In this document: in pieces, positions 59,235 to 63,021 of the stretch
How the letters are laid out: every line of letters starts with the position of its first letter
Numbering within the stretch: position 1 is the first letter of the stretch
Source: Nitrososphaerota archaeon
Lineage (GTDB): Archaea > Thermoproteota > Nitrososphaeria > Nitrososphaerales > Nitrosopumilaceae
NCBI GenBank assembly: GCA_028867755.1
Contig: JAGWFT010000001.1
Location: forward strand, 932,727 to 996,726
Reading direction: 5' to 3'
Length of the DNA stretch: 64,000 nucleotides
The notes under the pieces: generated by a model
Told to the model about the DNA's origin: nothing
Databases searched by the model: none
Seen by the model: only the letters and a program-made list of their open reading frames with translations
Position numbers and translations under genes: made by a program

Positions 59235-59769
59235 AGATCTTCAGCTTTGTCTGTTTCTTGCCTGCGGAAAAACCGATTAGATCATTTATTATGTTTGCAA
59301 ATGTAAATTGATCCTTATCTAGGGAATAAATTTTGGCATCTGACGAAATTGGTTTGTCTGTGACAAGCCATATGTTTTCAGACTTTGGCTGGATTTTTTT
59401 TATCTTGTTTACCTGCTCGTTTATTTCTTGTACCTTGTCTGTCTTTGAAAAACAAATGATTATTGCATCCTCTGGGGACAAGGAAAGTGTCTTGGTATCA
59501 GGTACTGCAACATCGATATCAACAGAATCAAGTTCTGTCTTTCGCTGGCTTGGAATCAAGGCAACTGTTAACATATAGTGGGTGAGACCTTCTGCCAATG
59601 CTCCTCGAGTTTCTGGCTTGTTGCCTCCTATCTTGTCAAGATTGGGCACACAATGGCTAAAAATTGCATTTATGGTCTCTGAGCTCTCGCCCTGTGCAAT
59701 GTCTGAGAGTATTCGCCTCTCTTCATAGTCAGAGATGGCTTGGTACAATATGTCTTTTAGCTCCAACAC
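59224..59769 (-). CDS. Hypothetical protein
   Basis: 181-aa ORF, convergent with bioD. Confidence 0.65.
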   Translation of the reverse strand: MLELKDILYQAISDYEERRILSDIAQGESSETINAIFSHCVPNLDKIGGNKPETRGALAEGLTHYMLTVALIPSQRKTELDSVDIDVAVPDTKTLSLSPEDAIIICFSKTDKVQEINEQVNKIKKIQPKSENIWLVTDKPISSDAKIYSLDKDQFTFANIINDLIGFSAGKKQTKLKIFRI

Positions 59770-59906
59770 AGACCTGATGTCATGATGATAATTAAAACAT
59801 AATCAATAAACCCAAAACATGCAAATCAGACACTGCTTTAAATTGTAGATATATTGCACGGAATTCTATCGCAGATAACCTGTTATCTATACCCAAATAG
59901 TATGTT

Positions 59907-60479
59907 TTATTTTTTGAATTTTTTGCTTGTGTATCTTGTCAGTCCTACTTTTTTTAGCTCTTCGGATTCTCTGAGAACTGATTTATGCTGGTTTTCTTTG
60001 TACTGTTTTAGTTTTTTTCGCAGATCAGAAAATTCATTTGCCAATATCTTTGCTGCATACAGGCCAGCGTTTGCAGCCTTGTTTACGCCAACTGTAGCAA
60101 CTGGTGAACCAGTGGGCATCTCTGATATGGATAAAAGAGAATCTAGCCCCCCAAAAGCAGAAACCTTGAAGCGGTCTGACTGGCCCTTGTCGTTATACAC
60201 CATTATTGGCACACCTATAACAGGTATTACAGTGTGTGATGCAATCATTCCTGGAAGATGTGCAGATCCGCCGGCTCCTGCAATTATTACCTTGAATCCT
60301 TCTCTTTCAGCGTGTCTTGCATAATCTAGCAGTCTTGTAGGAGTTCTGTGTGCTGATACTATCTGGTCTTCGTGTTTTATCCCAAACTCGTCTAGAATCA
60401 TTGCTGCTGAATGCATTATCTTGCTATCAGAACTTGAGCCCATGATTATTCCAACCAAGGGTTTTTTCAAATAAGTCAT
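59907..60479 (-). CDS. purE: N5-CAIR mutase
   Basis: IIMGSSSD, SAHRTP, AGAGGSAHLPGMIAS, PVIGVP, MP.G.PVATV; ATG at 60479 preferred. Confidence 0.96.
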   Translation of the reverse strand: MTYLKKPLVGIIMGSSSDSKIMHSAAMILDEFGIKHEDQIVSAHRTPTRLLDYARHAEREGFKVIIAGAGGSAHLPGMIASHTVIPVIGVPIMVYNDKGQSDRFKVSAFGGLDSLLSISEMPTGSPVATVGVNKAANAGLYAAKILANEFSDLRKKLKQYKENQHKSVLRESEELKKVGLTRYTSKKFKK

Positions 60480-60514
60480 AAGATGGTGCGGCATTGAATT
60501 TTAATAAAGGTTTA

Positions 60515-61702
60515 ATGGAAAACACACCACATCAAATAGTTCCTATTAACCTAAAATCGCCTAAAACAAAGTCAATGAGGCGTACCAATGACCGATGTTT
60601 TGCACTCTCTGCAAGCGCAATTAAATCTGAGAAGACAAAAAGCTCCTATATACGTTGCCTTAACGCATTTTTGGATTTTAGTCATATCAAAGAGTATGAC
60701 GACCTTCTCAAGCTTGCTGACAAAAAAATTCAGGAGATGGTAGAAGACTATGTTGTGAAGCTCAAGACAAGTGACCTGAATCCAAACACAATTCCGTCAA
60801 AACTTCTGGGAGTTCAGCACTTTCTGGTTATGAATGACAAGATCATAAACTGGAAGAAAATCCACAAAATGTATCCTGAAAAAGTCCAGTCTACTGGAAA
60901 ACAAGCTTGGACAACTGAGGATCTACAAAAAATGCTCGGAGTATGTACAAATCTTAGGGCTAAAGCCATACTTTTGGTCTTTGCAAGCACATCTGCAAGG
61001 GTTGGGGCTATTCCTATGTTGAAGATTAGAGATATTACAGACTGGACGCAAACAGATGATTCTTCGCCAAATCGAAGAGGATGTAAGAAAATTGTCATTT
61101 ATGCAAGCTCAAAGGAAGAATATACTAGCTTTCTGACACCAGAAGCAAGTAAGGCAGTAGAGGAATATCTCCAAAAGAGACGTATTGACGGTGAGAAAAT
61201 AACTGGGGATTCACCACTATTCCGTAATCTATATCAGGATAACACAGTTGACAGTGTAAAGCCAATCTCGTATCATTATCTCATGGATTTGGTAAAGACA
61301 ATAGTCAAAAAAGCTGGTCTCTCAAGGAACAAGGCAAACAGGAGATTTGAGGTTCAAACCGTTCATGGCTTTAGAAAACGATACAATACAATCCTGAAAA
61401 ACAATAAGGAAATCAATTCCAATATTGCCGAGAAGCTAATGGGCCACAAAAATGGACTTGATGGAGTCTATTTTGTGCCTACCATAGAGCAGTGTTTTGT
61501 AGAATTTCAAAAGGCAATCAAGGATCTTACTGTAGATGAGTCTGAAAGGTTACTTGTTCAGAATAGAAGCCTGGAAACTAGGTTATCTGAGATGGAGAAT
61601 CTGGAAGATGAAATTCAGAGACAGAAACAGGCTATTGCATATTTGTTGAGTAAAGATTCCGAAGGTCAAAACAAGCTTCAACTACAAGCTAACACCAAAT
61701 GA
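60515..61702 (+). CDS. Tyrosine recombinase/integrase
   Basis: Catalytic set: TSARVGA (R), HGFRKRY (HxxR), LMGH, GVYF (Y); N-terminal core-binding region; ATG at 60515. Confidence 0.92.
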   Translation: MENTPHQIVPINLKSPKTKSMRRTNDRCFALSASAIKSEKTKSSYIRCLNAFLDFSHIKEYDDLLKLADKKIQEMVEDYVVKLKTSDLNPNTIPSKLLGVQHFLVMNDKIINWKKIHKMYPEKVQSTGKQAWTTEDLQKMLGVCTNLRAKAILLVFASTSARVGAIPMLKIRDITDWTQTDDSSPNRRGCKKIVIYASSKEEYTSFLTPEASKAVEEYLQKRRIDGEKITGDSPLFRNLYQDNTVDSVKPISYHYLMDLVKTIVKKAGLSRNKANRRFEVQTVHGFRKRYNTILKNNKEINSNIAEKLMGHKNGLDGVYFVPTIEQCFVEFQKAIKDLTVDESERLLVQNRSLETRLSEMENLEDEIQRQKQAIAYLLSKDSEGQNKLQLQANTK

Positions 61703-61896
61703 ATCAGTAGAATGCATGTTTAACGCATGCACAGGTCGATCCTAGACTATATCCAATGGAATTTCGTTTGATATGACATGAGTCTGTCTGACAAAATAAT
61801 AAATTCAAATTTTTAATTCAAGAGAAGCAACAGCTAGCTAGAGCGTAACTTTAACTCAATCTGATTCTTCAAATTGAAACAACCCTTTGTAATTTT

Positions 61897-62010
61897 ATGC
61901 CGACATGTAAAGAATGTAATCTTGATTTCTACTCAAATGAAGGCCTTCAATTACACGTAGAAAAAGCACATGGAAAAACAGATCCTAACAAATTAGATTC
62001 GTTTTCATAA
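61897..62010 (+). CDS. 37-aa classical C2H2 zinc-finger microprotein (not in ORF track)
   Basis: MPTCKECNLDFYSNEGLQLHVEKAHGKTDPNKLDSFS* = C-x2-C-x3-F-x5-L-x2-H-x4-H. Confidence 0.75.
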   Translation: MPTCKECNLDFYSNEGLQLHVEKAHGKTDPNKLDSFS

Positions 62011-62439
62011 AATTTAAGATATGAAGGTTCTAAAACCGATTTGAATAGTTGATAGCTTGGAGGCATCTCTATATCAAACGAGAATCTTTTTATCTTTACA
62101 TGATAAGTGTGTCTAGCCTTCAAAGGGGCTAGCAGGGAAATCAAGTGAACGCGTTACGTGGATCTCCTTCCCTTTGAGGGCTATCTAACACTATTACAAA
62201 TATCTCTACTAAATAACCTTTGAATGATTTTAATAACATTGACCCAAAAATAGAACGACACAATACCTAGTCCCTCCGATTCTCACTCTAAATTGATTTT
62301 CAACTCTGAATCATGATCAAAAATAACCTTGAATTCAATGTGTTTAATACCTTGAATTTTAATAAACTCAGCGATTTACCTGATTTCCCTAAACCTTGTC
62401 TTATCGCGTGAAAATTCAATCTTTTAAATTATATGAACG

Positions 62440-63021
62440 ATGGATTGTACATTCTTTATGCAAAACTCCCCACTTGAAGTAAGACGGGCATTTGGGATCT
62501 TGTTTATCGGAGTTGCAATCTCTGTTGGCTCTGCCTCTATTCTAAGTGAGGCGGCATTTGAGAACAAAGACCCCATTTATTATTATGCCATAATCTGGTT
62601 TGGCAGCTTTGCAATAACATTTGGAGCAGTTCTTGGTAAATTCAGGCACATACTTGCATCAATAAGGGGCAGGATGAAAAATAGTGTGAGCTGGCCTGCA
62701 CCAGTAAAAGCGATAAATGGGCTGTGCTGGGCAGCACCGTTTGCAGCAATAGGTGCCTTTCCGCCGTTGTACCAGTATCTAATTTTGCTTGGAATAGGTC
62801 TTGGCAATGCATCAACATATGTATTCATGAAAAAATTCAGCAGTCTTGCAAATCATGAGCAAATAATAGTTGGTGCAATCTCGCTTGCAGCAATCCCGCT
62901 TGCTGTTTTTATTGATACATCATTTGTATCAAACCAGACAGTTGCAGTGATAGTTTCCAGGATTATGATAGCTGCAGCATATGGTGCAGGGGGAATCTAC
63001 GCCCTTGCAGTAAAAAAATAA
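62440..63021 (+). CDS. Multi-pass membrane protein
   Basis: About six hydrophobic segments in 193 aa. Confidence 0.75.
   Translation: MDCTFFMQNSPLEVRRAFGILFIGVAISVGSASILSEAAFENKDPIYYYAIIWFGSFAITFGAVLGKFRHILASIRGRMKNSVSWPAPVKAINGLCWAAPFAAIGAFPPLYQYLILLGIGLGNASTYVFMKKFSSLANHEQIIVGAISLAAIPLAVFIDTSFVSNQTVAVIVSRIMIAAAYGAGGIYALAVKK

Follow-up and report, generated by a model that had tools for sequence, protein, structure and literature searches.

Integrated elements of Thaumarchaeota were previously surveyed by Krupovic et al. (2019, PMC6563490), whose collection of 68 elements had tRNA genes as the location in 39 cases, intergenic regions in 15 and the 3' ends of genes in 14, with attachment (att) sites down to 8 bp in length. 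Cryptic integrated elements were shown to span 2.6 to 98 kb, the smallest, NitUzo-E2, being represented by an integrase and a wHTH protein plus a pair of hypothetical proteins (PMC6563490). All characterized archaeal integrases work without directionality factors (PMC8371274).

The locus analysed here is a 1,858-bp (~1.86 kb) insertion unit within a 64,000-nt stretch of DNA from an ammonia-oxidising Nitrososphaerota archaeon (referred to as the window). Similar to thaumarchaeal cryptic integrated elements, it exhibits a tyrosine integrase, short direct repeats, an intergenic target and no recognizable replication gene. Unlike the 2.6-kb NitUzo-E2 with its wHTH protein, its only gene besides that of the integrase encodes a C2H2 microprotein, and, compared with the thaumarchaeal cryptic elements, its att core is a predicted TATA box that is abutted by the integrase start codon. 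By gene layout, the integrase resembles the pNOB8-type (non-suicidal) archaeal integrases (PMC8371274), as the gene stays intact on integration and the att site lies outside it, and the catalytic R..HxxR..H..Y set is common to both. The present att core, however, measures 15 bp compared with 40-50 bp for the Sulfolobales enzymes, and its target is a promoter instead of a tRNA gene. The XerA chromosome-dimer resolvase is comparable in size and likewise a tyrosine recombinase of archaea; unlike XerA, the integrase scores far below the cut-off of the corresponding model, lacks synteny in relatives, lies between att repeats and has paralogues in mobile elements.

Boundaries, empty site and attachment core

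The unit is delimited by two exact copies of the 15-mer TTGAATTTTAATAAA (Table 1), which are the only two in the whole 1,636,759-bp genome; no further copy was found in the window with one mismatch allowed (0.1 expected). An earlier note on this DNA had reported an exact 15-bp direct repeat at 60494 and 62352, enclosing an intact integrase, a C2H2 microprotein and a structured right end, and had proposed that its removal would leave a normal-looking spacer of ~105 bp. The repeat proved to be exact and a unique pair genome-wide, and the integrase ORF, the C2H2 ORF and a structured, non-coding right end were all identified between its copies. In silico deletion of 60509-62366 placed the purE ATG (60479) at a distance of 102 nt from the ATG of the neighbouring membrane-protein gene at 62440, or 120 nt from the likelier ATG at 62458.

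Table 1. Features of the 1.86-kb element and its host flanks, in window coordinates
Feature	Coordinates	Strand	Remarks
purE, host flank	59907..60479	-	Leaderless-type start at 60479; Pfam AIRC 5.6e-57, TIGR01162 purE 3e-58; 190-aa product on record
attL core, predicted working purE TATA box	60494..60508	.	Exact repeat; TTTATTAAAA on minus strand, centre ~25 nt before purE ATG
Tyrosine integrase gene, 395 aa	60515..61702	+	PF00589, PHROG 216; ATG 6 nt past att core
Inverted near-copy of ATATCAAACGAGAAT motif	61759..61774	-	Inverted repeat I12, 16 nt, 88% complementary, partner 62071-62086
C2H2 zinc-finger microprotein gene, 37 aa	61897..62010	+	Conserved homologues; DNA similarity to other loci ends at ORF borders
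Promoter-like box resembling host nurA promoter (TCAAACGAGAAtCtTTTTATCT)	62071..62096	+	Short matches upstream of NurA gene in ~15 genus genomes
G+C-rich hairpin, 71 nt	62113..62183	+	MFE -37.9 kcal/mol, z -4.66, 0/200 shuffles as stable; single copy in genome
Degenerate core copy (CCTTTGAATGATTTTAATAA)	62214..62237	+	Read from sequence; 10-mer AAATAACCTT at 62211 and again at 62321
Half-core direct repeat (ACCTTGAATT, element-side half)	62326..62335	+	23 nt before core copy; candidate integrase-binding site
TTTAATA	62340..62346	+	Candidate junction promoter; positions counted from sequence
attR core	62352..62366	.	Exact repeat; then CTCAGCGATTT, same as in empty sites
Conserved membrane-protein gene, host flank	62458..63021	+	In 32/34 same-genus genomes; 187-aa product on record

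The empty site in related genomes, for which the earlier note had called, was observed in 20 same-genus genomes (15 public and five unpublished, the result holding on the public 15). In these genomes, purE and the membrane-protein gene are divergent across a spacer that, measured in one and the same register, is 117-144 nt long and harbours a single copy of (C/T)TGA(A/T)TTTTAATAAACTCAGC, and the window without 60509-62366 equals the spacer of the relatives, base for base, at the junctions. This single core copy indicates that the unit was inserted into a site which relatives retain in clean, empty form, and the correspondence between the end repeats and that copy identifies the unit as an integrated element formed by site-specific recombination. 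Assignment to an insertion sequence or transposon class was rejected, as the element ends carry no terminal inverted repeats, the element is present in a single copy and its closest relative occupies the same site.

A domesticated, XerA-like host recombinase accompanied by a chance repeat would fit the weak similarity of the integrase to the XerA model (NF040815, E 3e-15), yet this match reaches 56.4 bits against an equivalog cut-off of 220. Furthermore, no orthologue of the integrase was found in 59 related genomes (best match 48% identity), the gene is absent from the locus in the 20 relatives with an empty site, and the core, far from being absent in relatives, is present once in each of those spacers. 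Together with the genome-wide uniqueness of the repeat pair and the base-for-base match of the junctions, the empty sites already refute this explanation, which retains next to no probability.

Seven other relatives displayed a different arrangement, with other genes located between purE and the membrane-protein gene in four genomes and with purE not near the membrane-protein gene in three; neither an integrase nor an att repeat was observed on inspection of the purE/membrane-gene locus in any of these seven. The spacer occupants in relatives are small genes, for example an 82-aa wHTH-like ORF or one encoding a 266-287-aa protein, and the locus varies beyond the 1.86-kb element.

With respect to the target, ARAGORN detected no tRNA gene or tRNA fragment near the element, and an Rfam scan of 60300-62600 returned no match above chance. 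Read on the minus strand, the core is TTTATTAAAATTCAA and contains TTTATTAAAA, whose distance to the purE ATG, as read from the sequence, corresponds to archaeal leaderless promoter spacing; the core stretch also represents the most conserved part of the purE spacer among relatives. The attL core is, by these properties, the predicted TATA box of purE. Placed by the earlier note in intergenic DNA, the repeat is indeed intergenic, but it is not anonymous, corresponding instead to the conserved TATA box region of purE. As the core is duplicated on integration, purE keeps its TATA box at the normal distance, while the BRE side, upstream of this TATA box, now consists of element DNA. Both cores are exact, though purE needs only the left one.

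The same insertion was identified in a second assembly of this species (GCA_028866855.1), in which both element junctions are present on contigs matching 59241-61896 and 61943-64167, indicating that the insertion is real and shared between members of the species. The two assemblies showed 0 differences across 1827 bases of the element, 13 differences across 1253 bases of the left host flank, 11 of which fall in purE (11/573 positions, 1.9%), and 1 difference across 1801 bases of the right host flank. That the element is identical in two assemblies whose purE flank differs by 1.9% speaks for a complete, minimal autonomous element, made up of the integrase, the C2H2 factor, the att arms and a hairpin that would be a small RNA or origin-like; its circle would excise, drive the integrase from a junction promoter and re-integrate in the manner of a site-specific transposon or of a satellite of a larger element. 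The near-identity of the right flank speaks against this line of evidence, since an identical element does not by itself imply a recent transfer; for the same reason, the proposal that the element post-dates the split between the two host strains was set aside. The divergent left patch, which falls within 59241-60405, ends within 89 bp of attL, and its end may mark where recombination stopped, at the att site or close to it.

The integrase and the targets of its relatives

The element-encoded protein belongs to the Phage_integrase family (PF00589, 33.9 bits against a cut-off of 27.1, E 3e-8) and matched the PHROG 216 integrases (E 4e-16), while a sequence search for PDB homologues yielded none. 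A start at TTG 60494 was replaced by ATG 60515, because the N-terminus MENTPHQIVPIN is kept in the closest homologue (MGNTPHQIVPIN). An alignment of 15 family sequences revealed no variation in the catalytic residues R162, R287, H311 and Y319 and hardly any in H284, with H284xxR287 constituting the HxxR motif; the hairpin lysine is visible in the sequence (GCKK), though not flagged as invariant in this alignment. Comparison with the 82% identical homologue resulted in a dN/dS of 0.11. An SSV-type 'suicidal' integrase was also considered and rejected, since the ORF (60515-61702) is intact and the core is positioned 6 nt upstream of its ATG. A hairpin, GCATG-N7-CATGC, is located at 61713-61729, 10 nt past the integrase stop codon, and may act as a transcript end or a binding site.

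These features bear on whether the unit is dead, i.e. a fossil of an old integration that is immobile and kept by drift alone. Such a remnant would be expected to lack cargo, a second copy and junction evidence, all of which are lacking here, and to possess a right part that is mostly non-coding and unrelated to anything else, as observed. It would not be expected to maintain a full-length integrase with all catalytic residues and so low a dN/dS, an intact and conserved 37-aa ORF, and two exact cores of which purE needs only one, and we regard this explanation as improbable.

The integrase family comprises 1257 proteins at E <= 1e-20, derived from Nitrosopumilus, Cenarchaeum, Nitrosotalea and soil/sediment metagenomes, and a tRNA gene was found beside the integrase in only one of 40 family loci with an upstream flank. 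A search of the host genome for sister integrases, as the earlier note had suggested, retrieved two further full-length paralogues and one fragment, one of the paralogues belonging to a bounded sister element (see below).

The closest relative of the integrase (P0002, 82% identity) is encoded on a 6.3-kb contig, L054, the first 30 nt of which are identical to the purE-side flank of an empty site in another genome (G029). The junction on this contig, ...TTTTAATAAA|GGTTACATGG (starting with GGTT), is the same as that of the 1.86-kb element, showing that two or more species have this integrase lineage at the purE promoter. On L054, the integrase gene is followed by a gene for a 278-aa protein on the opposite strand and by six more ORFs without a Pfam or PHROG match, corresponding to at least 5 kb of cargo genes without assigned function and to an element of at least 6 kb.

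At six loci encoding integrases of 49-57% identity, the integrase ATG is located 10-12 nt after CATTTAAA, ~45 nt away from where a divergent DHH/DHHA1 gene begins, and several contigs break exactly at the CATTTAAA site. These positions indicate that the ~50%-identity clade targets the putative TATA box of a DHH-family gene. The sister element in the host genome (G000:C35:101107-113262) encompasses 12,142 bp, encodes an integrase with 36% identity and is bounded by the 14-bp repeat TTTAAAAAGTCTTT, which represents the single TATA box common to the divergent trpS and pheS genes. Its removal in silico restored a 52-nt trpS/pheS spacer, and the corresponding empty 52-nt spacer with one TTTAAAAAGTCTTT copy was found in 12 same-genus genomes, two of them unpublished. 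Judged from these loci, core-promoter targeting is a recurrent property of the integrase family, proven for two sites (purE and trpS/pheS) and indicated for a third (DHH) by position. More distant family members exhibit their own upstream regions and varied contexts.

The other full-length paralogue (G000:C24:603219-604223, L002; 42% identity) is located after cbf5/truB and a gene for a 149-aa protein, and boundaries of an L002 element were not found among repeats of at least 13 bp. This integrase gene precedes one for a 237-aa protein on the opposite strand, an arrangement known from other family elements. When ~60 family loci were searched by repeats for further very small elements, mostly 12-14-mers at chance level were returned, with the exception of L141 (3800-6760), where a 40%-identity integrase is positioned between direct repeats of 46, 18 and 12 bp, 2.83 kb apart. 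This locus represents a further integrase element of very small size, its att repeats being long.

The C2H2 gene, the right end and integrase expression

Homologues of the C2H2 microprotein (44-81% identity) are encoded by 56 of 61 same-genus genomes, in one to six copies each, and stand-alone homologues of 38-69 aa are present in metagenomes. No variation was seen at residues C4, C7, F11 and H20, and next to none at H25 and in the LDSF-like C-terminal tail. The PF00096 score of this single 37-aa finger (19 bits) is below the cut-off of 25.2, while the C-x2-C...H-x3-5-H pattern is present and many eukaryote-type finger proteins were matched. Such conservation argues that the predicted ORF is a real, conserved gene.

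In four loci (L152, L160, L162 and L167), the C2H2 gene shares its strand with a gene for an unrelated integrase type, which it follows ~280 nt downstream. This second type (found in these loci and in L170-L172) is 416 aa in length with a C-terminal zinc ribbon, and the gene order is integrase, C2H2 microprotein and a TrwB/HerA-like ATPase of ~815 aa; in L152 and at the locus of genome G063 (L167/L170), a tRNA-Cys gene adjoins this integrase. These loci appear to represent larger elements, and no TrwB/HerA-like ATPase was found in the host genome. A C2H2 gene was also observed inside an element with a Prim-Pol gene (genome G031), as well as in ordinary chromosomal surroundings (L157). The latter observation counts against our preferred explanation, as the gene is not a strict marker of mobile elements. 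A role of the C2H2 protein in the control of integration or excision is accordingly to be read as a lead and not as a finding; a complex prediction for the integrase and the C2H2 protein returned a score of 0.00, which says nothing either way.

The box downstream of the C2H2 gene matches the host nurA promoter (TCAAACGAGAAaCaTTTTATCT; host copy at G000:C24:1167965), and the motif TCAAACGAGAA(A/T)C(A/T)TTTTATCT represents the conserved nurA promoter across the genus. Among 179 fetched loci, the 11-mer of this motif was present only in nurA promoters, in the 1.86-kb element and in L054 (2157-2167). It may constitute a shared regulator site that ties element expression to DNA-repair control. A transcript initiated from the TATA-like box within 62071-62096 would start approximately at the foot of the 71-nt hairpin, which may represent a small RNA or a structure in the DNA. 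A bacterial promoter/terminator scan was uninformative for an archaeon.

Closer to the right boundary, ACCTTGAATT is present in three exact copies in the window, two of which are located at 62326 and 62349; the degenerate core and the half-core repeats are plausible integrase-binding sites. When searched against the host genome and 60 genus genomes, the right end produced matches only for the nurA-promoter-like stretch of 30-59 nt. Similarly, tblastx and local alignment of 61690-62366 revealed no remnants of cargo genes of related elements beyond the short motif. That the right 650 bp have only this motif in common with the cargo of related elements counts against the preferred explanation, for which the evidence of descent from a larger element is indirect.

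The positioning of the integrase gene has consequences for its expression. With the element integrated, GGTGCGG occupies positions -30 to -24 relative to the integrase ATG, while in the excised circle this place would be taken by TTTAATA (62340-62346); the TATA box of the core itself, at -16 to -7, is too close for a transcript that includes the ATG. As a placed TATA box is lacking when the element is integrated and TTTAATA takes this position in the circle, integrase expression is probably low in the integrated state and is probably switched on after excision by a junction promoter, a proposal that draws on spacing. L054 and the DHH-gene clade retain this tight core-to-ATG layout, while the sister element has room for a promoter of its own. 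In circular intermediates of insertion sequences and transposons, such as those of IS911 and IS30, the joined ends form a junction promoter. The joined ends of the present element would likewise assemble a promoter facing the recombinase gene; unlike IS911 and IS30, the presumed reaction is conservative site-specific recombination and not transposition, and the promoter would involve an archaeal TATA box.

Origin and significance of the element

Taken together, we consider it likely that the 1.86-kb unit is a small thaumarchaeal 'cryptic integrated element' with its own integrase and a purE TATA-box core. The integrase, from a family that occurs throughout the Nitrosopumilaceae and for the most part avoids tRNA genes, would recombine the 15-bp core of the element with the identical chromosomal TATA box of purE, the resulting duplication leaving purE with a TATA box at the normal distance. 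Members of the near clade and the sister element use housekeeping core promoters as attachment sites. The absence of a circle junction, an empty-site contig or a second element copy from the host genome assembly counts against this explanation. Expression of the integrase would be low upon integration and activated in the excised circle through TTTAATA. As the element is devoid of replication and transfer genes, any spread would have to proceed via re-integration, a helper or host recombination.

Concerning its origin, the balance tips towards a reduced derivative, in which a larger element at the purE site would have been trimmed to the integrase, the zinc-finger gene and the regulatory/structured right end. 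This reading is favoured because the closest integrase is located at the same purE site together with at least 5 kb of cargo. A complete, minimal autonomous element, as introduced above, would account for an integrase and a C2H2 gene that are intact and under constraint, for exact att copies, for half-core repeats at the right end that resemble binding sites, and for the internal promoter-like box and hairpin. Small elements are moreover known in the phylum (2.6 kb, PMC6563490), and the 46-bp repeats of L141 are only 2.8 kb apart. Nevertheless, the element is present as a single copy in the genome, its right end has no other copy in 60 same-genus genomes or in loci of related integrases, it encodes no replication or transfer function, and its closest relative carries the cargo mentioned above; autonomy is for these reasons judged unlikely, though somewhat less so than a dead remnant. 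The suggestion of the earlier note that the element is self-mobile or a satellite, and possibly transposon-like, gained no support: the element is single-copy, neither a second copy nor a circle junction was found in the assembly, and the cargo of the closest integrase relative at the same site favours a reduced derivative. Its description as a compact element with an intergenic, non-tRNA target fared better: the element is very compact and its target is intergenic, but such a target is not unusual, as 15 of 68 thaumarchaeal elements are intergenic (PMC6563490).

A far-reaching version of these proposals would combine a TATA-box-homing integrase clade, a minimal autonomous 'integrase circle' with an excision-only promoter, a C2H2 protein acting as the first archaeal accessory or directionality factor across unrelated integrases, and a nurA-like promoter tie to the repair regulon. 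As a whole, this combination is doubtful; if true, the nurA-like promoter would link element expression to the DNA-repair regulon of the host.

Publications on Thaumarchaeota already covered targets in intergenic DNA, short att sites and an element of 2.6 kb, whereas the 1.86-kb size, the gene content, the TATA-box target with empty sites and the start codon abutting the att core are new. With this element, the lower size limit known for integrase-borne elements of ammonia-oxidising archaea falls from 2.6 kb to 1.86 kb. Furthermore, a widespread Nitrosopumilaceae integrase family is seen to land on core promoters (purE, trpS/pheS and probably that of a DHH-family gene) and not on tRNA genes, and promoter targeting accounts for part of the published 'intergenic' class. 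These observations raise testable questions as to how host-gene expression is upheld and how the integrase is switched on. The 37-residue zinc finger, encoded beside two unrelated integrase types, represents a candidate archaeal accessory factor, none of which has been established so far (PMC8371274). Finally, such a very small cassette of att site and integrase could serve as a genetic tool in archaea that are still without one.
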